The notes beneath the pieces are model-generated. The model had not been told where the DNA came from. It did not search any database and was given only the letters and a program-made list of their open reading frames with translations. DNA of 64,000 bases. It comes from a virus. Lineage: Duplodnaviria > Caudoviricetes. Position 1 is the first letter of the stretch. Every line of letters begins with the position of its first letter. The stretch covers positions 19,653 through 83,652 of the IMG/VR virus record IMGVR_UViG_3300037762_000184; one strand, given 5' to 3'. The translations under genes and the position numbers were made by a program. Positions 3,688-38,641 of the stretch are shown here, in pieces.

Positions 3688-4000
3688 AAGGTTCTCTCCT
3701 CAGTCGTTCCTCGCCTCCACAGGCCGCCCCGACGACGGGGGACGTGTGGGATGTACTGCTGGGCTGCTGTTGGCGGGCCGGCTCACGAACGACAGCCGGA
3801 TCGTTGGTGGCGTTGGGATACGCCGAGGCAGCCTGTGCAGGCGAGGACTTGGAGCGCGAAGCGAGGTAGCGGGTGACGAGCAGCCGCGCCCGTGCGATCT
3901 CAGCGGCGAGCCGGTAGCGGTGCTCTTCCGCCGGCATGCCTTCGACCAGCACGATCCACGGAGAGTCCGGGTGGCGACGGCCGGAGAAGAGGGAGGTCAT
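3686..4000 (-). CDS. hypothetical protein
   Basis: ATGA-coupled start; C-terminus uncertain. Confidence 0.45.
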   Translation of the reverse strand: MTSLFSGRRHPDSPWIVLVEGMPAEEHRYRLAAEIARARLLVTRYLASRSKSSPAQAASAYPNATNDPAVVREPARQQQPSSTSHTSPVVGAACGGEERLRREP

Positions 4001-4380
4001 GCGGACCTCCGGCGGCGCTCTAAGTGAGCGGTCTTGTAGGGCGCGCAGTAGGCGGTGTGCGCTCGCGTGCAGGGCCGACAGCGGCAGCCGTAGTTCGTGT
4101 AGGTGCTGGTCGTCCCGTGCGTCGGGTTTGCCTCGCCGCGGAGGAAGCTCTCGCGCAGGTCGGCTACATGTTGAAGCTGTGCTTCCCGGCAGTCGGCGCA
4201 GCGGCATCCATGGTTGGCGTAGCCGGCGTGCGTTCCGTGTGGGACGCGGCTGAGGTCCCCCTCGGCGACTCTTTGTCGAAAGCGTTGGCGGCGGGCGCGG
4301 GAGTCGGCTGCATGGGCACCACGGCAGGCGTCACACCGGCACCCTTGCTGATAAAGCGAGTCGGTCCCGTGCTCGCTCAC
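3997..4380 (-). CDS. protein with three HGTxxxYxxxGCRCxxC repeats (putative Zn-binding)
   Basis: Repeats visible in the translation. Confidence 0.75.
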   Translation of the reverse strand: MSEHGTDSLYQQGCRCDACRGAHAADSRARRQRFRQRVAEGDLSRVPHGTHAGYANHGCRCADCREAQLQHVADLRESFLRGEANPTHGTTSTYTNYGCRCRPCTRAHTAYCAPYKTAHLERRRRSA

Positions 4381-4562
4381 CGCTGGCCTCCCTTCGCCTC
4401 GACGATCGCCGTCATGAGCGCCCGCCTCAGCCCCTCAGCCGTCTCCACCGGGATGGTCGCCACCATCGACAGAGGAGGAGAGCCGGAGACCACCAGCACG
4501 CCTGAGAGCGCGACGGTGACGGTGCCTGCCTTGGGGTCAGGGGTGACCGAGAGGGCGGTCAC
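4377..4562 (-). CDS. hypothetical protein
   Basis: Coupled start/stop overlaps. Confidence 0.6.
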   Translation of the reverse strand: MTALSVTPDPKAGTVTVALSGVLVVSGSPPLSMVATIPVETAEGLRRALMTAIVEAKGGQR

Positions 4563-5335
4563 ACCGCGCTCCGAGCGCGAGCCGCGGCATCACTCAGGAA
4601 GGCGAGGGGGAGCCGCCGCTCCTTGGAGGCATGGTTGTAGACCTGCTCCAGGCTGAGCACGTAGTCGCGGATGCTGCGCTGCCTTTCCAGCAGGTGGTTC
4701 CACTTGCCGAGCCTCCTCTCCAGCTCGGTGAGGTCAACTTCCTCGACGATCACGACGCGGGAAGCCGCCTGAACGAACGGCGTCGTGGTGGCGAACGCGC
4801 TGCCCGCCTCCTTGGCGGCCGCGACGAGCCGGGCCACCGCCTCCGCGTGTTGGCGGCCCGCAGGAGTCACTCGGTAGTTGCCCGCCTTGAACCCGGGGTA
4901 CTTGTTGTGACTGGCGGCAAGCTCACCGGCGAGCATCCCGATGCAGCAGCCGAGCGGGAGGTCCGTGCGCGTCCAAAACTGCTTCACCTCGACGTAGTAG
5001 CCGCGCCCCTCGCGAACGTAGGAGGTGAGGTAGTCGGCCAACGACCACGGCTTCGTGGCGGCCTCCAGCTCGTGAATGCCGATATCCCCGTCGTCGGCGA
5101 GGACGTAGTAGACCGGGATGCCAAGCTCGCGGGCGACGGCGAAGCGGTGGTGTCCGGCTTTGATCTTCAGCTTCGTGCCGTTCGGGACGCAGTGGAGTGG
5201 GTACTGCGGCAGGAAGCCATACCGCTCCATGCTCTTGCGCAGCTTGTCGGGCTCCGTGTCCCGGTTCTGTGGGTTCAGCTCGAACTTGTCGTAGTCGCGG
5301 GTCGACAGCAGCTTCGGTGCGGCGGCGGTGGTCAT
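4559..5335 (-). CDS. ParB/Srx N-terminal domain protein
   Basis: NPQNR...LRKSMERYG...KIKAGHHRFAVARELGIPV. Confidence 0.75.
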   Translation of the reverse strand: MTTAAAPKLLSTRDYDKFELNPQNRDTEPDKLRKSMERYGFLPQYPLHCVPNGTKLKIKAGHHRFAVARELGIPVYYVLADDGDIGIHELEAATKPWSLADYLTSYVREGRGYYVEVKQFWTRTDLPLGCCIGMLAGELAASHNKYPGFKAGNYRVTPAGRQHAEAVARLVAAAKEAGSAFATTTPFVQAASRVVIVEEVDLTELERRLGKWNHLLERQRSIRDYVLSLEQVYNHASKERRLPLAFLSDAAARARSAV

Positions 5336-6063
5336 GCGGTCTGCTCCTCCCTGTTCAGCTCATTGGCGATCCAGTCGTTCACCCGGAAAAGCGCAGCCAC
5401 CCGATGGGGGTCGGTGCGGCTGATGCGTTCCAGTTGGCTGATCGCGGACTCGGCGAAAGCCATCGCGTCGGAAATCTCGGCGGGGGGGATGCGCTCGGGA
5501 AGCCGCAACGGTTCCGGCGCCGTCTCCGCTCGCCGCCCGATGTTCGTGGTGTCCTGCTGGTAGGTGGTCCCGCCGCGGGTCACTTCGCGAATCGCGGGCC
5601 GTTCTATCTTAGGTTCGTCCTGAGATAGCACCTCGTCACGGCGCAAGCGGCTGACCCATGATTGGTCGACGCCGCAAGCCTTCGCGATTTCGCTGTCGCT
5701 CAAGGACACCCACTCGAAATCGTTGAGAAGGGTGAAAACAGCCTTCCGCTTGTCGGCATTGGAGCGGCGCAGCCCGTGGGCTTGATTCGCCCCCACGCTG
5801 TAGAGGATCGCGTCCCGCCGCGTGCCGCTCTTGACCTCCGGCCGGCAGCTCGTCAGCCCTGCCCGCTTCATCGCGTGGTACCGGTGGAAGCCGTCCGCCA
5901 GCCAGTACTCGGCGCCGTCGTGGAAGACGACCACCGGCGGGAACTCGGCGTCACCCTCCATCGCCTCGGCGTACTCGGCGACGGTGGTTTCGTTGATCTC
6001 CGCCCGCGGCTGCGTGTCGCCGTCCAGGCGGATCAGGTCGAGGTGAAGGGGCTTGCCGCTCAC
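5332..6063 (-). CDS. ParB N-terminal domain plus HTH protein
   Basis: TQPRAEI...FPPVVVF...YWLADGFHRYHA; GTGA overlap with the Cro-like stop. Confidence 0.8.
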   Translation of the reverse strand: MSGKPLHLDLIRLDGDTQPRAEINETTVAEYAEAMEGDAEFPPVVVFHDGAEYWLADGFHRYHAMKRAGLTSCRPEVKSGTRRDAILYSVGANQAHGLRRSNADKRKAVFTLLNDFEWVSLSDSEIAKACGVDQSWVSRLRRDEVLSQDEPKIERPAIREVTRGGTTYQQDTTNIGRRAETAPEPLRLPERIPPAEISDAMAFAESAISQLERISRTDPHRVAALFRVNDWIANELNREEQTA

Positions 6064-6335
6064 GCTGCCGCTCCAGCCTTCCGCTCGCCGGAGTCGGCGG
6101 GCTCCAACTCCCACCCATCTGCCGGCGAGTTGAAGAGCCGCTGCAAGATGCCGGTGTTTGCGCCATCCGGGCGCCCGGCCTCGCATAGCCAGACGCGCAC
6201 GGTTGAGGCGGCGAGTGGTCCCTTGTCGATCTTCCGGCGCTCCGCCGAGACCATCGCCGCCACGTCCTTGTCGGTGAGTCCGCGCGCCCGCATCGTGTCG
6301 CGAAGGTGGCGCGCCGAGGGTCGGTAAGTTGCCAT
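6060..6335 (-). CDS. Cro-like HTH regulator, probably leaderless
   Basis: HLRDTMRARGLTDKDVAAMV...STVRVWL; divergent from the XRE repressor. Confidence 0.65.
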   Translation of the reverse strand: MATYRPSARHLRDTMRARGLTDKDVAAMVSAERRKIDKGPLAASTVRVWLCEAGRPDGANTGILQRLFNSPADGWELEPADSGERKAGAAA

Positions 6336-6342
6336 GCGCAGC

Positions 6343-6371
6343 ACCATAGCGTCTTGCGGCTTACCTGTCAA
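6343..6371 (-). promoter_or_regulatory. sigma70-like promoter TTGACA-17-TATGGT
   Basis: Direct sequence; predicted TSS at or near ATG 6335. Confidence 0.75.
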
Positions 6372-6390
6372 GCCCCTCCGCGCATGCTGC

Positions 6391-6419
6391 TTGACACAGC
6401 AAGCCAGCGCGGCTAACAT
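6391..6419 (+). promoter_or_regulatory. sigma70-like promoter TTGACA-17-TAACAT
   Basis: Direct sequence; back-to-back with the leftward promoter. Confidence 0.7.
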
Positions 6420-6429
6420 GCGCGATGCT

Positions 6430-6873
6430 ATGGGCGTAGAGCGCACCATTGCGCTGCACAGCGCAGCGGAGTACCCTGGGAGGGTGACTCACCCTTTGGC
6501 CGGCTTGGGGCCGGCGCTTGCTGTGCTGCGGAACCGCCGCGGCATGACTCAGCGGGAGCTAGAGGAAGCCGCCGACGTGGCCGAGAACAGCGTCAGTCGC
6601 TTCGAGAACGGCAGGCACATGCGGCTGGACATTCTCAGCCGTCTCCTTGCAGCGCTTGGTGCCGACCTGTGCGACCTCGGAGTCGAGGCGCGAAGGGCGG
6701 TGGAGGTGGGCGAGGGCGAGGCAGCCGAGCCTCGCAGCCCCTACCACTACATGGCGGTGGAAACCGGGGCCGTATCAGAGCGCCGCCGGCTGGCGCTACT
6801 AGAGCAACGGCAGGCGGAGCTGGAATTGAGGCTGGCGGGTCTGGAGGACAAAGGCATAGCGGGGCGGGAGTGA
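6430..6873 (+). CDS. XRE/CI-like HTH repressor
   Basis: LAVLRNRRGMTQRELEEAADVAENSVSRFENG; C-terminal coiled coil; start uncertain (6430 or 6484). Confidence 0.85.
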   Translation: MGVERTIALHSAAEYPGRVTHPLAGLGPALAVLRNRRGMTQRELEEAADVAENSVSRFENGRHMRLDILSRLLAALGADLCDLGVEARRAVEVGEGEAAEPRSPYHYMAVETGAVSERRRLALLEQRQAELELRLAGLEDKGIAGRE

Positions 6874-6877
6874 ACTC

Positions 6878-7717
6878 ATGGGATTTGAAGAGCTAGCGCA
6901 GCGCGCGAACGACTGCCGGGTGGCCGGCAGGCACGAGGAGGCGGCGGAGCTGTTCGCCAGGGCGGAGGACGAGCTTTCGCCGGACGTCGAGGACCGGCGC
7001 CGGGCGCTGCTCCTGTCGTTGCAGGCGACGCTCGACCGGGACATGTGCCGCTACGGCTCGGCGCTCGACAAGCTGACCCGCGCCGCCAGGCTCTACCGCC
7101 TACACGGTGACAGCGACGGGCTCGCCCGGTGCGATATCAAGCGCGGCATCGCCCTCGACGACATGGGCGAGCACGAGGCGGCGAAGGCGGAGTTCGGCTC
7201 GGCCTGGAAGCGGGTGCCTCCAGACTCCGACCTCCGGGTCATGGCGGTCTACAACATCATCAACGCCGAGGTGTGCCAGGGGAACATCGCGCAGGCGCGG
7301 GCGATGTTCGAGGCGATGCGCCCGGCCGCAGATCTCATGGTGGAGCAAGGCGACCCGCTCGGCCATCATCTGCGGGTGCACTGGACCGAGGCCGAGATTC
7401 TGCTCGGCGAGGATCGGGTCGAGGAGGCCCGCTCAATCCTACGGGAGGTGTCCAGCCACTACGCGGCGACGGGCTCGGCGATCGACGCGTGCCGTGCCCT
7501 GACGGACTTGGCGGAGTGCGCGGTGCGGCTCGGAGAGTTGCCGGAGGCCGACGCGACCGCCTTGGTTATCGCCGGCCTGATGGCGAGGATCGGCCCGCGG
7601 GAGTCAGAGACGGTGCGGAAGATAGTACTGGCGCGGATGTCTCGGCGCCAGTACTCCGAGGCCGTGTTGAAGATGGTCCTGCTACGGAAGGGTCCGGCCC
7701 GTGTCCTGCGAGGCTAG
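6878..7717 (+). CDS. tetratricopeptide-repeat (TPR) protein
   Basis: Repeated helical A/L/G/Y patterns (YGSALDKLTRAARLY, HEAAKAEF, VEEARSILREV); no HTH. Confidence 0.7.
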   Translation: MGFEELAQRANDCRVAGRHEEAAELFARAEDELSPDVEDRRRALLLSLQATLDRDMCRYGSALDKLTRAARLYRLHGDSDGLARCDIKRGIALDDMGEHEAAKAEFGSAWKRVPPDSDLRVMAVYNIINAEVCQGNIAQARAMFEAMRPAADLMVEQGDPLGHHLRVHWTEAEILLGEDRVEEARSILREVSSHYAATGSAIDACRALTDLAECAVRLGELPEADATALVIAGLMARIGPRESETVRKIVLARMSRRQYSEAVLKMVLLRKGPARVLRG

Positions 7718-7983
7718 CCGTCAGGGTCCATTGAAGGATTCGCTTCCGTGCCGTTGTCGCATGCGGCGCAGGCGTCGCTCGTCGCGTCTTCCGGCACCGG
7801 CTCGACGGCCGGCTCCGGTTCCTCAGAGCTCGCGCTCACCCCGACCACCTCGAGCACGTCTCCCCAGGCAGCGGAGAGCCACCCCCACCAGCCCGCCGGC
7901 CCGTCCATCGGCCCCGCCATCGCCGGCGAAGCCAGCAGCAGAGACAGGAGCAGGCACCCCGTGAATCTCTTGGTCCTCAGCAT
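7714..7983 (-). CDS. secreted small protein/propeptide ending NPSMDPDG
   Basis: GAGGGAG RBS; basic N-terminus, hydrophobic core, AMA cleavage site; acidic linker. Confidence 0.75.
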   Translation of the reverse strand: MLRTKRFTGCLLLSLLLASPAMAGPMDGPAGWWGWLSAAWGDVLEVVGVSASSEEPEPAVEPVPEDATSDACAACDNGTEANPSMDPDG

Positions 7984-8046
7984 CTTCGACTCCCTCATCA
8001 GAGTGCGTCAGAGCGCCGTTGCCCTGGCGCACCTGGAGTCTACTCC

Positions 8047-8250
8047 ATGCGGGTGACAGAGGAGGGCGCCAGTGCTCTGGCAGGGGTGGCCGTCGTGCTC
8101 GTCATCGTCGCTGCAGGGATGATCGGCTGGTCTGCGGAGAGCGAGGGGATCGGCAAGGTGCTGGGGTTCCCGGCGGCTGCGGCGGCGCTGTTCGCGGCGT
8201 TGGTGTGCGGCGGGCTGGCGGTGGGGTGGTGGTGGCGGAGCAGGGAGTAG
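8047..8250 (+). CDS. small two-TM membrane protein
   Basis: Hydrophobic translation. Confidence 0.55.
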   Translation: MRVTEEGASALAGVAVVLVIVAAGMIGWSAESEGIGKVLGFPAAAAALFAALVCGGLAVGWWWRSRE

Positions 8251-8288
8251 GGGCGGCCGGCCGGACGGAAAACCGCCCCCAGGTCACG

Positions 8289-8435
8289 GACCCCGCCGCA
8301 AGGCATTTGGGATCTGCTGGGGGCGGGCGTCCCCCGAATCTGGTAGACTCGGGGTGTGATGGACGCGGCAACTGCTGTACCCAATCCCGAGTATAGCACC
8401 GGCACGATTCGCAACCTCTCCGGCCTAGAGGTTGG
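8289..8435. repeat. conserved non-coding element, copy 1
   Basis: 27-nt GACCCCGCCGCAAGGCATTTGGGATCT and 18-nt GGCACGATTCGCAACCTC...GAGGTTGG, both repeated at 49982-50162. Confidence 0.75.
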
Positions 8436-8724
8436 AGCACCCCTTTCGCGAGGAAGGGCTACAGGCGCGCGTCCACGCGGTCTTCAGAACGCCATCTCTC
8501 AAATCCGGGACACCGCCGACCCTGTGGACCCGGTCCTGACTGCCGAGGGGCGGGTGGCGGGCGTGCGAACACGCTCAGGCGCCGAACTAAGCGGCGCAGC
8601 ACACGGTCTGAGCTAGACGGATTCCACCGCGCTCCAGGGGCGCACGCTCTGAACGGCCTGTAGGGCTGTAAGGCCCTCTCCTCTAACATCAGGGGAAATG
8701 GGTAGGCTTTGGACTTACGCCCGG

Positions 8725-9837: not shown

Positions 9838-11427
9838 TCAGGTTGCCTTCTTGTCCACCGTCAGCAGCACGACGTTGACGTTCGTCCCGCACTCCCGGAA
9901 GCTCCCCTCTGGCAAGTCCTGGAACCGGCCGCCCAGCTTCTCGACCTGCGCTCGGAACGCTTCCGCCTTCGGGGTGCTGGCGTACTCCGCCGAAGCGCTC
10001 ATGATCGCCACCAGGCGCCCGCCCGGCTTCACGAAGCGCAGAGCGTGGTGGGCGTGGTCGATGTCGCGGCCTCGGTCGAACGGCGGGTTCATGACGACTC
10101 GGTCGTAGATCGGTTCGGCTGGCATCGCCAGGAAGTCCCGCGCCAGCACCCGAGCGCAGTAACCGGCCCGGCGCAGGTCGGCGGCCAGCTCGGGTTGAAT
10201 CTCGACCGCCGTCACGCGGTGGCCGGCGGGCTTGGTTTCCCTACGGTCGCGCCGACCGTTCGCCGCCACCTCGTAGCCCGCCACCCGCCGCGCCAATTGG
10301 CCCGTGCCGGCGCTCGGCTCTAGGACTTGCAGGGGGTCGTCGCTGTAGAGGTGCGCTTCTCGGATGACCCAATCGGCCAGCGAATCCGGTGTCGGGAACA
10401 GCCCGAAGTTGCGGGCGGGTGCGCGTTCGATGGCGCCGGAGAACGGCTTCTCTGGGTCCGGCTCCCGCTCGGCCTTCCCCCAGCCCAGCCCCGCGCCGTA
10501 GTAGTCGGCCAGAAGCCTGTTGACCTTCGCCAGCAGGTCGTTGCGCCGAAACCACAGGTGAGCGTTTCCGTTCTTGAAGACGCGAATCTCGAAGTAGTCT
10601 CCAAAGTGGCGACTCTGCCGGCGGTCGAAGCCATTGCGCCGGCCCGCTTCGATGGCGCCGACGATGCCGCCATAGGCGGCGGTCGGCTTCTTGCCGTCGA
10701 GAATCAGAAACACGCGCTCGATGTCGAGGATGGTGTCACGCACGCCGTCGTAGTGGTTCCACGATCCCCAATCGTTGAACGCATAGGTCAGGATGAGGCG
10801 GGTTCCGATCTTGAAGCCGTCGTGCGAGCGGAAGCGCCGGTCAAGCTTCGAGAACGCCGTCGCAATGCCGCGCTTCCAGATCTCCCCGGCGTTTTCCCGG
10901 AACGTCTCCAGCGTGGCGAGGATGTTGTCGACGGTGACCGGCGGCAAGCCGCGGGCGGCCTCGGCGTTGTCGATCAGCCTGCCGGTGTTCCGGTCGACCT
11001 CCTCCGGGACGTAGGCCATCTGCTTGCGCAGTTTGTCCTTCGCCGTCCGGTCCATCAGGACTTCGAGCTCGGTGTGGGCGATGACGGCTCCCCACACTTG
11101 CAAGTCGGTCAGCCGCCGGGCGACGCGCTTGTGCGCCTCTACGTTCGGCGGCTCGACAGCCTTCTGAAATTCCTCGATTTCCCGAGCGTGGCCCTCGACG
11201 TAGGGCGCTGAAAAGGCTCCGTCTCCGCAGGCCAGCGCCACGCTCTTCTGCGCCTGCCGGAGCGTGACGTGGGCGGCCTCAAGCTGGTCAAAGAACTCCT
11301 CATAGAGCCGGACCGCGTCGTCCCTGCGCGCCACGATGTTGGCGATGGTGTCGCGCGGGATGAGCTGCCCGCCCGGTTCCGGCTCGTCGTCGAACGACCG
11401 TTGCTGCATCGGCTCGGCCGGCATCAC
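9838..11427 (-). CDS. DUF4942-type domain plus SAM-dependent N6-adenine DNA methyltransferase
   Basis: FEIRVFKNGNAHLWF, FGLFPTP, VLEPSAGTG, VVMNPPF motifs. Confidence 0.85.
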   Translation of the reverse strand: MMPAEPMQQRSFDDEPEPGGQLIPRDTIANIVARRDDAVRLYEEFFDQLEAAHVTLRQAQKSVALACGDGAFSAPYVEGHAREIEEFQKAVEPPNVEAHKRVARRLTDLQVWGAVIAHTELEVLMDRTAKDKLRKQMAYVPEEVDRNTGRLIDNAEAARGLPPVTVDNILATLETFRENAGEIWKRGIATAFSKLDRRFRSHDGFKIGTRLILTYAFNDWGSWNHYDGVRDTILDIERVFLILDGKKPTAAYGGIVGAIEAGRRNGFDRRQSRHFGDYFEIRVFKNGNAHLWFRRNDLLAKVNRLLADYYGAGLGWGKAEREPDPEKPFSGAIERAPARNFGLFPTPDSLADWVIREAHLYSDDPLQVLEPSAGTGQLARRVAGYEVAANGRRDRRETKPAGHRVTAVEIQPELAADLRRAGYCARVLARDFLAMPAEPIYDRVVMNPPFDRGRDIDHAHHALRFVKPGGRLVAIMSASAEYASTPKAEAFRAQVEKLGGRFQDLPEGSFRECGTNVNVVLLTVDKKAT

Positions 11428-15135: not shown

Positions 15136-15575
15136 TGCTCGCTTCCTCCCCACCCTTCGGCTGCAACCTCTGCGGATGGACCGGCGACCGGAGCGCCACA
15201 ACGCTTCACCCTTCCGGCGCCCGCGGCTGCCCGGCCTGCACTGCTACAGAGGGCCTTACGCCCATCGCCGTGACTGGCGCGAAACTCGTGAAGGAGAGCG
15301 GGCTTGATGAACGGTTTTTCTCTCCTGCGATGCCTCCGGACACGCACCCTCTACGGTTAGAAGCGTGCCGTTCGTGCGGCGGGCCAACATGCCTAGACGG
15401 CGTGCGATACTTCTTCGCCTGGCCGTTCGGTGGCGTCGGCGAGACGGTAGCGCCAGGCCTCCAGGCGGAGCCTCTGTGCGATGGTTGCGAAAAGACTCTA
15501 AAGGCCAATGAAGTGCTCGCCGCGCTGCATCCCGACCACCGCATGCGCTTTCCTCAACGGGAGCATTCGCGCTGA
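15135..15575 (+). CDS. Cys-rich hypothetical protein
   Basis: Four CxxC pairs; coupled to the MTase start. Confidence 0.55.
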   Translation: MLASSPPFGCNLCGWTGDRSATTLHPSGARGCPACTATEGLTPIAVTGAKLVKESGLDERFFSPAMPPDTHPLRLEACRSCGGPTCLDGVRYFFAWPFGGVGETVAPGLQAEPLCDGCEKTLKANEVLAALHPDHRMRFPQREHSR

Positions 15576-16984
15576 TGCCCTCCCGCCCCACAGCAGGGAA
15601 GACCGACGAGCTGGCCTTGCGCTACGTCCCCCTCGACCAGGTGCAGCGGTGGGACCGCAACCCCAAGCGCCACGACTTCGGCGCTCTCATCCAGTCGATC
15701 CAGCGCTACGGCTTCAAGGACCCGCCGAAGGTCGAGCCGGCCCTGAACGGCGGGGAGGGTGGAGTTGTCGAGGGCAACGGTCGCGCCGAGGCCCTGGCGA
15801 TGATGCAGGCGGACGGCGCCGAGGCTCCCCGTGGCATCGCGGTCGACAAGCAGGGCCGGTGGTGCGTCCCGGTCCTCTTCGGCGTGGACGCTCGATCGAA
15901 GGCCGAGGCGGAAGCCTACGGGGTGGACCACAACAACCTGACGCTCTCCGGCGGCGACCTCGGGATCGACGCGATCCTCGGCATCTGGGATGAAGACCCG
16001 CTGCGCGACCTTCTCGCCAGCCTGGCGGCTGACGGCGAGATGCCGGTGTCTCTCGACGGCGACGACCTCGACGCGCTGCTGAACCATCCGGGCGAGGTAG
16101 TAGAGGACGAAGCCCCCGAGCCTTCGAACGAACTCCAAGAGAAGTGGCAGGTGAAGACCGGCCAGCTCTGGGGCATCGGACGGCATCGGGTGCTGTGCGG
16201 GGACTCGACGAAGGTGGAGGACACGGGGCGGCTGATGGGCGGAGAGCGGGTTGGACTCTGCTTCACCTCGCCACCCTACGCACAGCAGCGCGACTACACC
16301 GCAGAAGCGAAGGCGGGACTGGCGGATTGGGATGCGCTGATGCAGGGCGTCTTCGCGAACGTCCTGATGACCGACGACGGGCAGGTGCTCGTGAACCTCG
16401 GTCTCGTTCACAGGGACGGCGAGTGGCAGCCCTATTGGGACGGCTGGATTGCTTGGATGCGAGAGCAGGGATGGCGGCGATTCGGGTGGTATGTGTGGGA
16501 TCAGGGGGCTGGAATGATGGGCGACTGGAACGGTCGCCTCGCGCCGTCGTTTGAGTTCATCTGGCACTTCAACCGAGCGCCTGTGAAAGCGCGTAAGGCG
16601 CGGGAGTGTAAGCACGCGGGGGAGGCACACGGGGGCAAGGGGCAGCGCGGGGCAGACGGAACAGTCAAGGCGCGACACAGCGGCAAGGCGCCAGTGCGGT
16701 CGCATGCCATTCACGACAGCGTGCTCCGCGTTCCTCGCCAGGGCGCAGCGAGGGGGGCCCTTGGGCATCCAGCGCCGTATCCTGCCGGCCTGCCGGGACG
16801 CATCATCGAGTCCTGGCCCGGGAACGTCTACGACCCCTTCCTCGGCTCCGGCACCACCCTAATCGCAGCAGAGCAGCTCGGCCGCCGCTGTTTCGGCTTG
16901 GAGATCAGCCCGGAGTACGTCGCAGTCATCCTCGAGCGAGCGGAGAGGTTCGGGCTCACGCCGAAGCTGGAGAGCGATGGCTAA
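15575..16984 (+). CDS. ParB-like domain fused to N4-C/N6-A DNA methyltransferase
   Basis: RNPKRHD...SIQRYGF...VEGNGR; LGRHR-like GDST, FTSPPY, HPAPYP, VYDPFLGSGTT. Confidence 0.9.
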   Translation: MPSRPTAGKTDELALRYVPLDQVQRWDRNPKRHDFGALIQSIQRYGFKDPPKVEPALNGGEGGVVEGNGRAEALAMMQADGAEAPRGIAVDKQGRWCVPVLFGVDARSKAEAEAYGVDHNNLTLSGGDLGIDAILGIWDEDPLRDLLASLAADGEMPVSLDGDDLDALLNHPGEVVEDEAPEPSNELQEKWQVKTGQLWGIGRHRVLCGDSTKVEDTGRLMGGERVGLCFTSPPYAQQRDYTAEAKAGLADWDALMQGVFANVLMTDDGQVLVNLGLVHRDGEWQPYWDGWIAWMREQGWRRFGWYVWDQGAGMMGDWNGRLAPSFEFIWHFNRAPVKARKARECKHAGEAHGGKGQRGADGTVKARHSGKAPVRSHAIHDSVLRVPRQGAARGALGHPAPYPAGLPGRIIESWPGNVYDPFLGSGTTLIAAEQLGRRCFGLEISPEYVAVILERAERFGLTPKLESDG

Positions 16985-23786: not shown

Positions 23787-23856
23787 TGCGGTTCCAATAG
23801 TACCGCATCGGTGCTTGTGCGCGCAACAAGCACCGGCCACCCTCATTTCGGGACTA

Positions 23857-26800
23857 GTGCGCGTGCCGAAAACCACAACCAACGGAAGCGGCAACGGCGC
23901 GGCCGAACCTCGCCTGCCGACCAGCCGTCTGCGCGCCATGGGCTCAGCGCTGGTGGCGCGCGCACGGCTTGCCTCACGGGCCGGGCTGAGCTTCGGCGGT
24001 AAGCGCGACTTCTACACTGCGCTCGGTTACGAGCGCGACCTCACAATTCAGCACTACCGCGAGCTATACGAACGCGGCGGTATCGCTCGAAAACTGGTCG
24101 ACCTCATCCCGACCCTGGCATGGACAGCCGGCGGCGCCGACATCGTGGAAGACCCGGACCCCGGCGAGCTCACGGAATTCGAGACGCAGGCTGCCGAGCT
24201 GTTCGCGCGCGTCGACGCCTGGCCTCGCTTCCGCCGCGCGGACATCCTTTCTCGTCTCGGCCGCTACTCCGTTCTGCTGCTCGGTACGTCAGACCTTGAA
24301 ACGCAGGCGGACTTCGCGCAGCCGCTGTCGAAGCTCTCCGGTCCGGACGACATCCTCTACCTCACGCCGAGAGCCGAGAGCCACGCGAAGATCTGCTCTC
24401 TCGTCAAGAAGCCTTCCGACCCGCGCTTCGGCCTGCCTGAGTTCTACAACGTCGATCTGGGGCACGACGAAGACAGCAAGGCGCTCCTCTCCGGAGGGAC
24501 GCAGAAAACCCACTGGACGCGCGTGGTCCACATTGCCGGCGGGCTGCTCGATAACGACGTGTACGGCGAGCCGGCCCTGCGTGCGTTGTGGAACCTCCTC
24601 TTCAACCTCGAAAAGCTGCTCGGCGGCGGCTCAGAGGCGACGTGGAAGCGGATGAACCCGCTGACGCTCTTCGACCTGAGCCCCGATGCCGTACTCGGCG
24701 ACACGCCCGCGGAGATCGAGGAAGCCGAAGAGGCGTTGGAGGACGAGATCGAAGAGCTGGTGCATGGGTACCGTTCCTATGCCCAGGCCACTGGTCTCGA
24801 AGTAAAGAGCATCAGTCAGGCGGTGCCCAACTTCGGGCCGAACGCGGCGGCAATCGAACGCCATATCGCGGGCACCGGAAACATCCCCCATCGCGTCCTC
24901 TTCGGAACGGAGCGCGGCGAGCTAGCCAGCGCGCAGGACCGCTCGAATCTCAGCGACAACGTCCAGGGCTACCGGGACAGCCACTGCAACGTGGTAGTCC
25001 GCCAGTTCCTCGCCCGCTTGATTGAATACGGCGCTCTTCCCGGGCCGGTCAAGCATGAGCTGGTATGGCCTGAGATGGAAGAGATGAGCGAGCCCGAAAA
25101 GGCCGACGTGGTCAGCAAGATGGCGACCGCGAACAAGGCCAACGTCGACGCAGGCGGCGGCCTGATCGTCGCCGCGAACGAGTTGCGGAACGACGTACTC
25201 GGCAAAGGGCCTATCGAAGAGATCGAAAACTCCGGGGTGGCCGAGGGAGGCGGCGACGGTGGTCCCTCCTCTGCCGTCGCCGCCTCCCTCCGGGCTGCGA
25301 AGCTCAGGCTGTGCCGGAAGCGCGGGCTGGACTTCGGGCCTGACTCTCCGGCCGCGCTTGCCGGTAACGAGGAGCCAGAGTGGCGCGCAGTCCACCGTGC
25401 TGCCGACTTGCACATGGAGTCTCTGGCGCGGGCTGTCGTCGGCGCCTGGGATGACGGAGCGGCGGAGATCGACGACGGCGCCCTTGAGGACGCGCTCGCC
25501 GCCGGCAACTTCGGTGCCGCCGAAACCGTCGCGCTCGCCGGTGTCACTGCCGCCGAGCAACGTCTCGCCGAGATCCTGCCTGACCGACTACTCGCCACCC
25601 TGGTAGATGGTGGCCTCGCCGCTCTGCGGTCCGCTCGGTCGCGCGGTTCTTTCTTCCGCCGCGCCGCGGGATTCTCGGCGCAGTTCGATGCGACCAACCC
25701 GCGCGCCGTCACGTGGGCGGAGGAGCGTTCCTCGCTGCTGATCACGGAGATCGGCGTCGAAACGGTGTCGGCGATGCAGGCGCTCATCGCGCAGGGCCTC
25801 GCCGAGGGCATCCCGCCCCGGAAGCTGGCGCAGCAGATTCGGGCTGCGGTAGGGCTGCGCTCGGATCAGGTGTCGGCCGTCCAGAACCTCATCACGGAGT
25901 TGCAGGCGGCGAAGCCCGGCTCGCTGGTGACGCGCTTCCCTCCGCGGGAGGGCCTGCGTGGCTCTGCCGGCTTCAAGGCTCGCATTCCGAAGAGCGGCAT
26001 CACGCAGGAGTGGTTGGACCGGCAGGCGGCGCGGTACTCGACGATGCAGCGGAACTACCGAGCCAGAACAATCGCTCGCAGTGAAACAATGAGAAGTGCG
26101 AACGAGGGTGTCCGCGAGCTTTGGAGGCAGGGCCAAGAGTCCGGTCAGCTCCCAGCGGATATCAAGCGGGTCTGGCTTCACAACACTGATCGCCACGCAG
26201 ACCGGGCCGGGGTGGCGGTAGGCATTGACGAGCCTTGGCCGTGGGGAACCGAGCCGGGCGAAGAGGTGAACTGCTTCCTACCTGGAACGGATGTCAGCGG
26301 CGCGTTCGTGGCTGGCCTAAAAACCCTCTATGCGGGGCCGGCTATCGAAGTAGCCACCCGGCAGGGTCACCGGCTGCGCCTCACGCCCAATCACCCCGTA
26401 CTGACTTCGCAAGGTTGGTTGCCGGCGAAGAGTCTCCGCAAGGGCCAGCAGCTTGTCTGCTGCCTTCCGGAGGTTGATCTTCTGTCGAGCGGAGCCCTGC
26501 TCGGGGGCGAACGTCCCGCCAGCGAGGCGTTCTCTCGGCCGAGTCCATCCGTGCCGCGAGCCGTTGGGCGACGTGGCGCAGACGACGATCAGGGACCAAC
26601 CCTGATTGAGGACGTATTCGAAGCGCTTGCGTCTCAGGGCGCCTTGGCGCGCAAAGGCTGTACTGGTCTCGATCTCCACGGCGATGCGAAGTGGTCGGAT
26701 GGCGAGGTCCAGATTGTAGGGGCCGAGAGGGAACTGGTGCGTTACCTTGATTCCGCCGCGTCTCAGGAGAGCAGCGAGCTCATGTTCGAGAGGGCTGGTG

Positions 26801-27222
26801 TGATTCGCGCGCTCGCAGTTGGTGCGAGCCCTGGCAATCCTGGCTTCCAGAGGGTCGACGCGCCCCCGTCTGGCTTTCCACGCGGCGCTGAGTTGGCGGC
26901 GGACAGCCTCCCCGCCCTGCGCCTTGATGGACCTCCACTTCAGCCTCTGCGCGTCGGCCCTGCCGCGTATCTGGACACCGTTAAGCCGAAAGCGCCTCTC
27001 GATACACCTGCGGCTGAGTCCCGTTTCGTCGGCGAGCTGCTTCATGGAGGCGCCGGCCTTGTAGCGTTCGATGAGGTTGTGCAGGTTCGGGATTTCTCGT
27101 TCCGCGGACACGTCTTCGATCTCCAGTCTGTGACGGGTTGGCTTTCCGCTGGCAACATTATCACAAGCAACTGTGGCTGCGCACAGGGCATCGAAGATCC
27201 CGCGCGGGCGGAGGCGGCGTGA
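23857..27222 (+). CDS. portal protein (DUF1073-like) fused to head morphogenesis MuF domain, intein-containing
   Basis: YERGGIARKLVD, ADILSRLGRY, IPHRVLFG portal motifs; RARTIARSE and EEVN|CGC MuF motifs; single open frame; start uncertain. Confidence 0.85.
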   Translation: MRVPKTTTNGSGNGAAEPRLPTSRLRAMGSALVARARLASRAGLSFGGKRDFYTALGYERDLTIQHYRELYERGGIARKLVDLIPTLAWTAGGADIVEDPDPGELTEFETQAAELFARVDAWPRFRRADILSRLGRYSVLLLGTSDLETQADFAQPLSKLSGPDDILYLTPRAESHAKICSLVKKPSDPRFGLPEFYNVDLGHDEDSKALLSGGTQKTHWTRVVHIAGGLLDNDVYGEPALRALWNLLFNLEKLLGGGSEATWKRMNPLTLFDLSPDAVLGDTPAEIEEAEEALEDEIEELVHGYRSYAQATGLEVKSISQAVPNFGPNAAAIERHIAGTGNIPHRVLFGTERGELASAQDRSNLSDNVQGYRDSHCNVVVRQFLARLIEYGALPGPVKHELVWPEMEEMSEPEKADVVSKMATANKANVDAGGGLIVAANELRNDVLGKGPIEEIENSGVAEGGGDGGPSSAVAASLRAAKLRLCRKRGLDFGPDSPAALAGNEEPEWRAVHRAADLHMESLARAVVGAWDDGAAEIDDGALEDALAAGNFGAAETVALAGVTAAEQRLAEILPDRLLATLVDGGLAALRSARSRGSFFRRAAGFSAQFDATNPRAVTWAEERSSLLITEIGVETVSAMQALIAQGLAEGIPPRKLAQQIRAAVGLRSDQVSAVQNLITELQAAKPGSLVTRFPPREGLRGSAGFKARIPKSGITQEWLDRQAARYSTMQRNYRARTIARSETMRSANEGVRELWRQGQESGQLPADIKRVWLHNTDRHADRAGVAVGIDEPWPWGTEPGEEVNCFLPGTDVSGAFVAGLKTLYAGPAIEVATRQGHRLRLTPNHPVLTSQGWLPAKSLRKGQQLVCCLPEVDLLSSGALLGGERPASEAFSRPSPSVPRAVGRRGADDDQGPTLIEDVFEALASQGALARKGCTGLDLHGDAKWSDGEVQIVGAERELVRYLDSAASQESSELMFERAGVIRALAVGASPGNPGFQRVDAPPSGFPRGAELAADSLPALRLDGPPLQPLRVGPAAYLDTVKPKAPLDTPAAESRFVGELLHGGAGLVAFDEVVQVRDFSFRGHVFDLQSVTGWLSAGNIITSNCGCAQGIEDPARAEAA
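26272..27171 (+). mobile_element. intein (300 aa) in the MuF domain
   Basis: CFLPGT start, LTPNHPVLT block B, VFDLQS block F, TSN|C end; splicing restores GEEVNCGC. Confidence 0.9.
26317..27111 (-). CDS. HTH plus DUF559/Vsr-like endonuclease, antisense within the intein
   Basis: SPLEHELAALL...QFPLGPYNLDLAI...IAVEIE...GWSLI; N-terminal YKAGASMKQLADETGLS HTH; GGAG RBS before GTG. Confidence 0.75.
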   Translation of the reverse strand: MSAEREIPNLHNLIERYKAGASMKQLADETGLSRRCIERRFRLNGVQIRGRADAQRLKWRSIKAQGGEAVRRQLSAAWKARRGRVDPLEARIARARTNCERANHTSPLEHELAALLRRGGIKVTHQFPLGPYNLDLAIRPLRIAVEIETSTAFARQGALRRKRFEYVLNQGWSLIVVCATSPNGSRHGWTRPRERLAGGTFAPEQGSARQKINLRKAADKLLALAETLRRQPTLRSQYGVIGREAQPVTLPGGYFDSRPRIEGF

Positions 27223-35934: not shown

Positions 35935-36140
35935 CCGGACTCGACTTATTGCGCCGCGTCTTCATCCCTCGGGAGCTTCCGGTGGCGGAGGGCGGCAGCG
36001 TCTTCCGGACGATCGACGGGCAGACCTATCGCCGGATGGCTGACGGTTCGATTCGGCGCCACCCGCCGAAGGTGAACTGCAAGGCGGCGAAGCGGGCGCG
36101 GCTCAAGGCCCGGCGAGCAGCGGAGGTGGCATGCGTCTGA
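35931..36140 (+). CDS. hypothetical protein
   Basis: Coupled overlaps. Confidence 0.5.
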   Translation: MTGLDLLRRVFIPRELPVAEGGSVFRTIDGQTYRRMADGSIRRHPPKVNCKAAKRARLKARRAAEVACV

Positions 36141-38641
36141 TTTTCGTGGGCGACTCGCCGACGGTGGACACCGGATTTTCGCGTTGCACCCGCGCGGCCT
36201 GCGCCGAGCTTCACAACGCCGGCCATGAGGTCCACGTCCTCGGCATCAATGAAAGCGGCGACCCGCACGACTATCCGTATCCGATCTATCCGCCGCGGAG
36301 CTTACGGGACCGCTCCCGTAGCGCGTTCGGCATGGATCGGCTGCCTGCGCTCTCGGCACGCCTAAAGCCTGACGTGGTGGTTCTGCTCACGGACCCGTGG
36401 CACGTCCCCGCGTACCTCGCCGCATTCGAGGACGCCGGGGTGGAGTGCCCGCCGATGGTCGCGTGGCTGGCGGTGGATTCCAAGAACCACCCGAACAGCG
36501 CGGAGTTGAACCCACTCGCTCACATCGTGACCTGGACGCAATTTGCGCAGGATCAGCTGCGTGCTGGTGGCTACACCGGGCCGGCCTCCATCGTGCCGCT
36601 CGGCGTGGATACTTCGCTCTTTTACCCACGCGATCGCGCTGCCGCCCGCGCTGAGCTGCGGGCCATCAGTGGCGCCGAAGTCTTCGGGCCGGAGGATTAC
36701 ATCGTCGGATATGTGGGAAGGAACCAATCGCGCAAACGAGTAGATTTGCTGATCGGTTACTTCGCCGAATGGATCACCCGCTACAACATCCGTGACGCCT
36801 ATCTCTACCTCAAGGTGGCGCCGACAGGGGAGTCAGGGTGTGACATCCGCAGCGTCGCCACCTACTACGGCAAGGCGGTGGAAGGCCGCCTGCTGGTGTC
36901 CGCACCGCCGGCCGGATTCGGCGCTCCCGACGACCTCATGCCGCTCGTTTACAGCGCGATGGACGTGTATCTCACCACCACGCAGGGCGAGGGCTGGGGC
37001 CTTTGCGTCAGCCCCGACACACTGATTCAGACTCCGCAGGGTGCCCTCCCGATGCGCGACATTTCGTCCGGCGACCGGGTGATGACTCAGGACGGATCGT
37101 TCCATGACGTGCGCGCAAAGATCACGCGCGAGGACGAGGTGATGCGGGTCAAGGTCGCCGGATCGCCAGCACTGACGGTGACGCCGCAGCATCCGTTCCT
37201 GGTCTTGCCGCGGCGCTCTGCTCCGCAGGACTACTACCGACGGCATCCCGAGGCGCCGCGCTGGACCCGCGCTGACGAGTTGCGCGAGGGTGATCTGGTG
37301 GCTTGCCCTCGCCCTCCGTGGTCTGACTCTTTACCCGACTCCTTTGATCTTGCCGAAGCCGCCGACTCGCGCACGAAGATGGACGAGGACGCGATCTGGC
37401 ACCCCATGGGATTCTCGCCCCGTGACCGACGGCAGTCCCTGTCTGCGATCGCGGCCACTCATGGCGTTTCTAGTCGCGTTGCCGAGGACGCCGTGGCGTT
37501 CGCGAACGGGTCAGCCACGCCGGTGCGCGCGCAGTCGGCGTCCCGCGCCCTTGCCGAGACGCTCGGTCCGATGCCGAAGGCACAGCCGGTCAAGCTCTGT
37601 CGCCGGGTGCCGGTCAACGCGCGAACCTTGGAGTTGCTCGGCTGGTTCCTTGCTGAGGGCTCGACGGGAGGCGGGAACAGGGTCGAGATTGACCTGCACG
37701 CGCGCGAGCTGCCGGTCGCCGAACGCCTCGCTGAAACCTTCCTGACCGCATTCGGTGCCGAAGCGACCATCGAGCGCAACGGCCCGAACAAGTGCCGGGT
37801 CCGTGTCTGCTCAACGCTGCTTGCCCGATGGTTTCGCCAAATGTGCGGCAACGGTGCGCGTAACAAGAGGTTATCCCCCGCGCTCTGGCGTAGCGCGGCC
37901 CATCTCGGACCGCTGGTCGCTGCATACTTCCGCGGAGACGGCTACTGGCAAGGTAACGGGTGGCGGGTGACGACGGCCTCTACCGACCTCGCTTGGCAGA
38001 TCCGCATGGTGCTAGCCGCGGTCGGTATCCACGCGTCGGTCCGCAGGCTTTCGCGTGAGCGGGCGTGGGCGGTCGATGTCTGCGGTGCGCCGGCAGAACG
38101 GTTCTCTCAGTGGTGCGGGCTACCAACGCGAGCGGACCGTACTCGCAAGGCGGGGAAGACAGCCCTCACCCGCGAAGACTTCATCTTCGTTCCGGTGCGG
38201 AAGATTCACAGGACCGGCGAGCGCTCTGTGGTGATGGACATCGAGGTGGACAGCGTCCATAGCTTTGTCGGTGCTGGCGTGATCCTTCACAACACGACTC
38301 ACGAGGCGATGGCGTGTGGGGTTCCGTGCATCGTGCCGGACTGGTCGGCCCTCGGGGAGTGGACGGAGGACGCGGCGATCAAGGTCCCGTGTACCTCGAC
38401 GGCTCTCACGGCACCGCTGAATCAGTTCCCCTACACCATCGGCGGGGTGCCGGACAAGGAAGCGACCATCGCGGCCCTGCATGCCCTCTATTCGAGCCGG
38501 GAGCTGCGCGACGAGCACCGCGAGCGAGGACTGGCGCTGACGGCGCGCCCGGAGTACCAGTGGAGCAACGTGGGCGTGGCCTTCCGCGAGACGCTGGAGC
38601 GGGTGCTGGAGCCCGCGGCTGCCGGTGAGGTGGCCGCCTGA
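36131..38641 (+). CDS. glycosyltransferase family 4, intein-containing
   Basis: TGFSR, VGRNQSRKR, EGWGL|TTHEAMACG after splicing. Confidence 0.9.
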   Translation: MRLIFVGDSPTVDTGFSRCTRAACAELHNAGHEVHVLGINESGDPHDYPYPIYPPRSLRDRSRSAFGMDRLPALSARLKPDVVVLLTDPWHVPAYLAAFEDAGVECPPMVAWLAVDSKNHPNSAELNPLAHIVTWTQFAQDQLRAGGYTGPASIVPLGVDTSLFYPRDRAAARAELRAISGAEVFGPEDYIVGYVGRNQSRKRVDLLIGYFAEWITRYNIRDAYLYLKVAPTGESGCDIRSVATYYGKAVEGRLLVSAPPAGFGAPDDLMPLVYSAMDVYLTTTQGEGWGLCVSPDTLIQTPQGALPMRDISSGDRVMTQDGSFHDVRAKITREDEVMRVKVAGSPALTVTPQHPFLVLPRRSAPQDYYRRHPEAPRWTRADELREGDLVACPRPPWSDSLPDSFDLAEAADSRTKMDEDAIWHPMGFSPRDRRQSLSAIAATHGVSSRVAEDAVAFANGSATPVRAQSASRALAETLGPMPKAQPVKLCRRVPVNARTLELLGWFLAEGSTGGGNRVEIDLHARELPVAERLAETFLTAFGAEATIERNGPNKCRVRVCSTLLARWFRQMCGNGARNKRLSPALWRSAAHLGPLVAAYFRGDGYWQGNGWRVTTASTDLAWQIRMVLAAVGIHASVRRLSRERAWAVDVCGAPAERFSQWCGLPTRADRTRKAGKTALTREDFIFVPVRKIHRTGERSVVMDIEVDSVHSFVGAGVILHNTTHEAMACGVPCIVPDWSALGEWTEDAAIKVPCTSTALTAPLNQFPYTIGGVPDKEATIAALHALYSSRELRDEHRERGLALTARPEYQWSNVGVAFRETLERVLEPAAAGEVAA
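37004..38293 (+). mobile_element. intein (430 aa) with LAGLIDADG endonuclease
   Basis: CVSPDT start, VTPQHPF, LLGWFLAEGS and AAYFRGDG motifs, ILHN|T end. Confidence 0.9.

Follow-up and report, generated by a model that had tools for sequence, protein, structure and literature searches.

IMG/VR virus record IMGVR_UViG_3300037762_000184 (Duplodnaviria; Caudoviricetes) is a complete phage genome of 83,652 bp with direct terminal repeats, and the 64,000-nucleotide stretch analyzed here (the window, in which all positions are given unless a locus is named) corresponds to its bases 19653 to 83652. Between positions 6060 and 7983, the window carries divergent regulatory genes of the Cro-like and XRE types, a gene for a tetratricopeptide repeat (TPR) protein, and, convergent on the latter, a gene for a small secreted protein ending in D-P-D-G. 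We consider it somewhat more probable than the contrary that this region is a phage switch with an attached peptide-sensing module, in a phage of an Acidobacteriota host. A broader proposal, which we put forward tentatively and would sooner doubt than believe, is that it represents the first peptide-based phage communication outside the Bacillota, setting lysogeny or induction in phages of diderm Acidobacteriota and captured from an undescribed host family in which dozens to ~100 secreted, often multicopy D-P-[DN]-G peptides per genome each have their own soluble TPR anti-sigma reader.

The two genes of the putative sensing module and the parts of the peptide precursor are as follows.

6878-7717, plus strand: gene for a soluble TPR protein of 279 amino acids (aa) (Pfam TPR_12, 2.5e-9; TPR_19, 2.8e-9).
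7714-7983, minus strand: gene for a pre-pro-peptide of 89 aa, convergent on the TPR gene.
7915-7983, minus strand: Sec-type signal peptide (residues 1-23), with a predicted cut after A-M-A and before G-P.
7837-7893, minus strand: Trp-rich amphipathic helix of the pro-region (residues 31-49), shared with all of the phage-type and cellular precursors described below.
7759-7770, minus strand: Cys pair C72-x2-C75.
7717-7740, minus strand: C-terminal unit N-P-S-M-D-P-D-G, the proposed mature signal.

An earlier note on this DNA had described an XRE gene followed by a 279-aa TPR gene and, converging on the latter, an 89-aa protein with a signal peptide, an acidic linker, a CxxC motif, and a terminal DPDG. 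All of these are present where that note had placed them, the TPR gene beginning 4 nt past the XRE stop codon. The stop codons of the TPR and peptide genes overlap in the palindrome CTAG (7714-7717), and the ATG of the peptide gene has an AGGGAG Shine-Dalgarno sequence 6 nt ahead of it. The GC content at third codon positions is 0.89 in the TPR gene and 0.85 in the peptide gene, and codon-position GC favors the XRE, TPR, and peptide frames. The signal peptide, which we called by inspection and hydropathy, has a K/R n-region and a Leu-rich core with a hydrophobic maximum at residues 7 to 17; further along, an acidic and Pro-containing linker joins the Trp-rich helix of the pro-region to the Cys pair. 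Every homologous TPR gene that we found is accompanied by a small gene of this build, and we therefore take the peptide open reading frame (ORF) to be a real gene and not an artifact of high GC content. A plus-strand ORF (7748-8056) that shares third codon positions with the peptide gene was rejected, as only the minus-strand product is conserved elsewhere.

The TPR protein is rare. A word-indexed search of 5.8 billion proteins yielded three relatives, an exhaustive profile search added four further phage-type relatives of 269 to 280 aa, and a search with a profile of the peptide, which found relatives only beside homologous TPR genes, led to an eighth phage-type TPR protein (P0015, in locus L004). 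The protein had no match in 50,697 phage records, and a search of viral, genome, and metagenome contigs with the phage-type TPR alignment found no related loci. We compared seven phage-type loci (the window, L001, L002, L004, L014, L015, and L016), of which L015 is plainly from a phage, with RecT, small and large terminase, and portal genes. In 7/7 loci, a convergent peptide gene ends between -60 and +3 nt from the TPR stop codon, and its product has the same build: a signal peptide (where the N terminus is present), a Trp-rich helix, an acidic Pro-rich linker, and a Cys pair spaced by 2 to 6 residues. All seven peptides end in [STA][MIL]DP[DN]G, one of them with two extra residues, and the D, P, and G of this end are invariant. 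Identity to the TPR protein of the window ranges from 63% down to 29% across these loci, and the kept synteny is therefore not a reflection of near-identical phages. Wherever upstream DNA is available (five of five loci), an XRE homologue lies directly before the TPR gene, as in L001, L004, L014, and L015, and a Cro-like gene diverges from it. The earlier note had let its reading hang in part on whether peptide and TPR genes are inherited together; the pair is kept in every phage-type locus compared and, as described next, in cellular homologues as well.

After the phage-type proteins, the 949 representative matches of the exhaustive profile search are dominated by proteins of ~430 to 470 aa, whose C-terminal ~250 residues match the whole TPR query in a single stretch (HMMER, query positions ~5 to 270, E of 1e-14 to 1e-8); by BLASTP, the TPR protein of the window is 27% identical to P0012 (E = 7e-8). 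These host homologues carry an N-terminal zf-HC2 zinc finger of the zinc-binding anti-sigma (ZAS) type (H-x3/4-C-x2-C), and no membrane segment was found in those that we read. Their source names are those of Acidobacteriota, Thermoanaerobaculia, and Holophagales metagenome-assembled genomes (MAGs); together with the loci themselves, these names bear out the statement of the earlier note that peptides ending in DPxG lie beside TPR genes in Thermoanaerobaculia. An 8.8-Mb Holophagales genome (G002) has 111 matches and a Thermoanaerobaculia genome has 50, and at E <= 1e-40 the zf-HC2-TPR family is present in 15 of 401 sampled Acidobacteriota genomes. The 111 matches in G002, several of which stand in tandem (e.g., 295464-300337), are an unusually large expansion for a family of regulators.

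Host zf-HC2-TPR genes also have adjoining precursor genes (seen in L005, L007, L011, L013, L027, L028, L030, and L036), usually 40 to 380 nt upstream and on the same strand. The precursors are built like the phage peptide and contain between one and six units that follow the pattern x-G-x-x-hydrophobic-D-P-[DNS]-G; the Cys pair is absent from most of them. In the Holophagales genome, a precursor with one or two [DN]PxG units was present in 12/20 paralogue regions versus 0/20 control regions of equal size, the latter chosen at spaced coordinates and not at random (Fisher's exact test, p = 2.3e-5). Some of the TPR ORF calls in this survey took ORFs of the opposite strand, and the precursor count is independent of them. 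In one Thermoanaerobaculia locus, a precursor has six identical nine-residue units and is followed by an extracytoplasmic function (ECF) sigma factor gene that overlaps the zf-HC2-TPR gene. The full order in that MAG (L007, 3901-9873) is six-unit precursor, ECF sigma factor, zf-HC2-TPR protein, M23 peptidase, and ABC exporter; the host system may rely on the peptidase and the exporter for processing and export. A variant precursor of ~25 aa from an inner ATG, ending in I-N-P-N-G and with no clear signal peptide, adjoins a family member in L021 (2997-3152) and L032 (1770-1925).

At the protein level, the units of a given precursor are the same or almost the same, yet up to 7 of their 9 codons carry synonymous differences, and the spacers between them diverge; selection therefore acts on the short unit. 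Paralogues have different residues before D-P, which makes the unit paralogue specific. Taken together, this is the pattern expected from the sequences of cognate signal-sensor pairs. We found no description of the acidobacterial zf-HC2-TPR/precursor family in the literature searched, and the passages searched of a paper on ECF reclassification (PMC7826278) do not mention a TPR or peptide partner.

All eight phage-type TPR proteins are 269 to 289 aa long, start with the TPR domain, and have no zf-HC2 finger, and in a quick maximum-likelihood tree they form one long-branched group apart from the cellular proteins (SH-aLRT 100). This topology is compatible with a single capture accompanied by loss of the zf-HC2 domain. 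The acidobacterial zf-HC2-TPR/precursor family is the true family of the phage TPR/peptide pair and the one from which it derives.

The conservation of the precursor also bears on whether the small protein is a signal at all. It might instead be secreted, or act on membranes, for some unrelated purpose, for example as a Trp-rich peptide resembling a bacteriocin or as an exclusion factor, with the TPR protein as its regulator, its chaperone, or a mere conserved neighbor. The Trp-rich helix is as conserved as the C-terminal unit, and the M23 peptidase and ABC exporter genes downstream in one host locus would suit such a product. However, the two genes stay paired whether they converge, as in phages, or run in the same direction, as in cells, and across TPR identities of 27 to 63%; genes for modification, immunity, or export are absent from the phage locus; and constraint within the precursors is strongest on the repeated short units. 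We therefore regard an unrelated product as very unlikely. A precursor of a ribosomally synthesized and posttranslationally modified peptide (RiPP) was likewise rejected as the principal interpretation, given the Sec signal of the precursor and the lack of modifying enzymes in the phage.

If the small protein is a signal, the listener may not be another phage. The phage TPR protein could hear host DPxG peptides, or the phage peptide could act on host zf-HC2-TPR proteins and so reprogram ECF sigma factor regulons, and the module would then not be a closed phage-phage channel. The phage unit matches the host units in core and length, tens of such systems are present per host genome, and eavesdropping by phages on host signals is established in the case of VqmA of phage VP882. 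On the other side, a peptide gene of its own accompanies the TPR gene in all seven phage-type loci, as a self-contained cognate pair predicts, and the single long-branched group formed by the phage TPR proteins lies apart from the cellular ones. We think cross talk with the host unlikely as the function of the module.

The signal might also stay within the cell that makes it, the TPR protein binding the C terminus of the precursor before export, or the peptide never leaving the periplasm and the cell, such that the pair would report the state of secretion or of the envelope rather than population density. A cytoplasmic TPR protein together with a motif at the extreme C terminus recalls the clients of chaperone and degron TPR proteins (Hop-MEEVD and the C-degron of APPBP2), the ECF sigma/anti-sigma partner in one host locus is typical of envelope stress sensing, and the very high number of paralogues fits quorum sensing poorly. 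Against this stand the multiunit precursors, in which units under purifying selection and junctions of the K/Q-P type point to the release of several diffusible peptides, and the diversified residues before D-P, which suggest insulated signaling channels. Sensing confined to the cell is, in our view, distinctly unlikely.

The sequence of the TPR protein has no signal peptide and no membrane segment, as for an intracellular protein. An AlphaFold2 model (pLDDT 93.5, pTM 0.90) is an all-helical superhelix of 14 helices, in which the TPR domain fills residues 3 to 269 of 279 and no effector domain is fused to it. The best VIA-align chains for this model are TPR proteins that read peptides, namely, TONSOKU with a histone H3 tail (Z 22.6), APPBP2 with a C-terminal degron (Z 21.0), NprR-NprX (Z 20.6), RapH (Z 20.2), and the Rap protein of phage phi3T with its pheromone (Z 19.9), and the top TM-scores in Foldseek (0.67 to 0.68) are those of Rap-pheromone complexes. 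In profile searches of the PDB, Profile A1 gave Rap105 as the best match, at a marginal E = 9e-4, and the deeper profile A5 placed generic designed TPR and pentatricopeptide repeat (PPR) proteins first, with RapH at only 1e-8. The modeled fold fits a peptide-binding role, though not specifically. No RRNPP-specific Pfam or NCBIfam family matched the TPR protein, and neither it nor the peptide matched a PHROG or NCBIfam family.

Upstream of the TPR gene lie the elements of what is probably the lysis-lysogeny switch of a temperate phage.

6343-6371, minus strand: leftward promoter-like site TTGACA-17-TATGGT (sigma-70-like, 10/12 matches).
6391-6419, plus strand: rightward promoter-like site TTGACA-17-TAACAT (sigma-70-like scan).
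6366-6373 and 6389-6396: perfect 8-nt inverted repeat, TGTCAAGC and GCTTGACA, with halves 15 nt apart, spanning both -35 boxes.
6060-6335, minus strand: gene for a Cro-like early regulator (91 aa from the likely ATG at 6335; ORF open to 6449).
6430-6873, plus strand: gene for a candidate XRE-family, CI-like repressor (147 aa from the likely start at 6430; ORF open from 6334).

As the earlier note had it, back-to-back promoter-like sites face the Cro-like and XRE genes; these two are exactly the sigma-70-like sites found between 6000 and 8500, against a mean of 0.1 in shuffled sequence. The 8-nt inverted repeat that includes their -35 boxes (6366-6396) is a candidate operator. The leftward -10 box ends at 6343, so that transcription is predicted to begin about 1 nt from the ATG at 6335, and the start codons of both genes lie few bases from their predicted transcript starts, suggesting that the Cro-like and XRE mRNAs would be nearly leaderless. 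The leftward early operon opens with the Cro-like gene. The product of this gene has no Pfam match; it aligns with the products of the divergent genes of L004, L014, L015, and L001, of which the L001 copy matches HTH_3 (1.1e-13), and the aligned copies have in common the C-terminal motif W-W-x-x-P-A-E-S-G-E. The XRE protein matches HTH_31 (1.8e-11) and HTH_3 (1.3e-9) in Pfam and transcriptional regulator/repressor families in PHROGs, and its helix-turn-helix (HTH) is accompanied by the conserved motif P-R-S-x-Y-H and by a short helical tail. A further claim of the earlier note, that HTH and TPR parts are split between two genes, holds in that the XRE protein has the HTH and the TPR protein has none.

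A domain scan of the XRE protein found no S24 peptidase (autoprotease) domain, and the XRE protein alone therefore cannot respond to RecA. Because the repressor lacks this RecA-sensitive domain, the TPR protein, encoded in the same apparent transcription unit, is an obvious candidate signal input for it. An analogy in the same direction comes from the host, in which the same TPR domain is fused to an anti-sigma domain that it would control in a comparable way.

Several lines of evidence point to a member of the Acidobacteriota, and so to a diderm, as the probable host, in line with the high-GC, probably diderm host of the earlier note: where the TPR/peptide family occurs, a GC content of ~67% in the window, and the relatives of the large terminase, which reach 68 to 71% identity in two Acidobacteriota genomes versus 58.8% for the best phage record. 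The TPR family was not found in those two genomes, and the terminase evidence therefore supports the phylum at most. A search of 401 Acidobacteriota genomes with the XRE profile turned up no prophage copy of the module, only generic HTH domains. Binding proteins of the OppA/DppA type (SBP_bac_5) occur in 4/4 host-type genomes, which is weakly permissive of peptide import. The prophage terminase genes most similar to that of the window (68 to 71% identity; L086, L087, and L089, in G044 and G087) are each broken in two, with a TGA that falls between query residues 290 and 316 and may be due to a frameshift, read-through, or an insertion.

On the preferred interpretation, the pre-pro-peptide would be exported by Sec and trimmed to a peptide of ~6 to 9 residues whose C-terminal end, hydrophobic-D-P-[DN]-G, has a free carboxylate; host precursors, if cut after G, would yield the same end from their internal units. 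The peptide would accumulate with the density of phage-carrying cells, reenter the cytoplasm via an oligopeptide permease, and bind the concave groove of the TPR protein. The latter would act as the input device of the XRE repressor, as either a peptide-controlled corepressor or an antirepressor, so that the level of peptide would bias the choice of lysogeny or induction in an arbitrium-like outcome, in either direction. A scan detected no terminator-like site between the TPR and peptide genes, and convergent abutting genes of this kind would allow the peptide gene and the repressor operon to interfere with each other through antisense RNA or through transcription itself. Such interference would resemble that of prgQ and prgX on plasmid pCF10. 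The invariant core of all precursors joins Asp-Pro to Asn-Gly or Asp-Gly. The Asp-Pro bond is acid labile, and Asn-Gly and Asp-Gly are the pairs most prone to succinimide formation; one might speculate that a chemical lifetime is built into the signal.

A number of observations weigh against this interpretation. The fold matches are generic, with 871 of 968 chains at Z >= 8. No effector domain, whether for DNA binding or otherwise, is present in the TPR protein, its link to the XRE protein is one of gene order, and none of 20 homologues scanned is an HTH-TPR fusion, their N termini carrying zf-HC2 or no domain; nor did profile comparison reveal any similarity between XRE profiles and the long host zf-HC2-TPR proteins. 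The sigma-70-like scan of 6000 to 8500 recognized no promoter for the peptide gene. An integrase is indicated weakly, and only by a tyrosine-recombinase-like match outside the window (E = 3.3e-5, below the family cutoff). The host is an inferred one, and in a diderm the peptide would need to cross the outer membrane twice. Finally, because 50 to ~100 paralogous pairs per genome far exceed any known quorum-sensing family, the host systems may serve something other than cell-cell signaling.

Among the other features of the window are two ParB-like genes of the leftward operon (PHROG E values of 3.8e-14 for 4559-5335 and 3.8e-16 for 5332-6063), which follow the Cro-like gene.

5332-6063, minus strand: ParB-like gene (PHROG), in the early leftward operon after the Cro-like gene.
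4559-5335, minus strand: second consecutive ParB-like gene (PHROG) of the leftward operon.

The GTG start codon of the ParB-like gene at 5332-6063 overlaps the stop codon of the Cro-like gene. Farther along, a 127-aa protein (3997-4380, minus strand) has three G-C-R-C-x-x-C repeats, with only a weak hint of a treble clef. A gene at 8047-8250 (plus strand), which diverges from the peptide gene, encodes 67 aa with two hydrophobic stretches; a nearly identical product is encoded in the same position in L004 (4219-4380), and the other phage-type loci have other neighbors. The window also encodes the large terminase, the portal protein, and methyltransferases, and the phage has three tRNAs. The portal protein and a family 4 glycosyltransferase (23815-27222 and 36131-38641, plus strand) contain intein-like insertions, the second of which also has a LAGLIDADG domain. 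A 529-aa protein (9838-11427, minus strand) joins DUF4942 (2.9e-41) to a small methyltransferase domain, and a further DNA methylase is encoded at 15575-16984.

Were the proposal correct, the module would be a Gram-negative counterpart of RRNPP signaling that evolved independently, with RRNPP-like logic carried out by another family of proteins. That logic would be at work both in phages and in their host phylum, which has an outer membrane, is abundant in soils and sediments, and is poorly represented in culture. If this were confirmed, diderms would join the hosts in which phages communicate with one another, a very large set of genetically encoded peptide signals with anti-sigma factors as their readers would come to light, and hundreds of natural cognate peptide/TPR pairs would be available for studies of specificity. 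The hypothesis can be tested with synthetic peptides and two small soluble proteins, for which no host culture is needed.

Quorum sensing by peptides and intracellular TPR proteins, together with the arbitrium decisions that phages base on it, is regarded as a trait of Gram-positive Firmicutes, and a survey with RRNPP_detector frames it in this way (PMC10075063). The module described here shares with RRNPP systems a TPR superhelix as the putative receptor and an adjoining gene for a propeptide with a signal for export, and the RRNPP-like label of the earlier note is apt as an analogy. It does not extend to membership, because the effector that is fused to the TPR domain in RRNPP proteins (an HTH in PlcR, PrgX, NprR, and AimR; a three-helix bundle in Rap) is absent, sequence similarity to known RRNPP receptors is marginal, and the peptide chemistry and gene arrangement are different. 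By this comparison, we regard the module as analogous to RRNPP and arbitrium systems and not as a member of them.

The closest likeness is to arbitrium (AimR-AimP-AimX of SPbeta-like Bacillus phages), which likewise combines a phage-encoded intracellular TPR sensor with a Sec-exported propeptide in a lysogeny control region, the likely signal being a conserved C-terminal end of hexapeptide size in which a conserved core is preceded by variable residues. In AimR, however, the HTH is fused to the sensor, whereas here it is encoded by the separate upstream XRE gene; aimP (~43 aa) is downstream and codirectional, whereas the peptide gene here is convergent and abutting; and the propeptide here is twice as long (89 aa) and contains a Cys pair and a conserved helix rich in Trp. 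We identified no output resembling AimX, the probable host belongs to the diderm Acidobacteriota, and the window proteins have no AimR-like match in PHROGs or Pfam. Rap-Phr systems (of Bacillus, plasmids, and phages, as in phi3T, phi105, and pLS20) resemble the module in another respect, in that their TPR sensor lacks a DNA-binding domain and acts on a partner protein; they too have an adjoining secreted propeptide and cognate pairs that have expanded and diversified on chromosomes and mobile elements. The phage TPR protein differs from Rap in lacking the N-terminal three-helix bundle, its presumed ligand is an acidic, turn-forming D-P-[DN]-G unit instead of a basic Phr pentapeptide, and some of the host precursors carry up to six tandem units.

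Two further comparisons concern the host family. Like the ZAS anti-sigma factors (RsrA-SigR and ChrR-SigE), the host homologues have a zinc domain and no membrane segment, and the gene for one of them overlaps an ECF sigma factor gene. Known ZAS proteins sense redox state or singlet oxygen via the zinc site or a cupin domain, whereas the host homologues add a TPR domain and a dedicated peptide gene, and the phage TPR protein has lost the zf-HC2 part altogether. With the multicopy precursors of yeast alpha-factor and multicore RiPPs, the host precursors share a signal peptide, two to six tandem units, and variable spacers; unlike those, they are bacterial, predicted to be exported by Sec, and without modifying enzymes nearby, and the phage version is reduced to a single unit.

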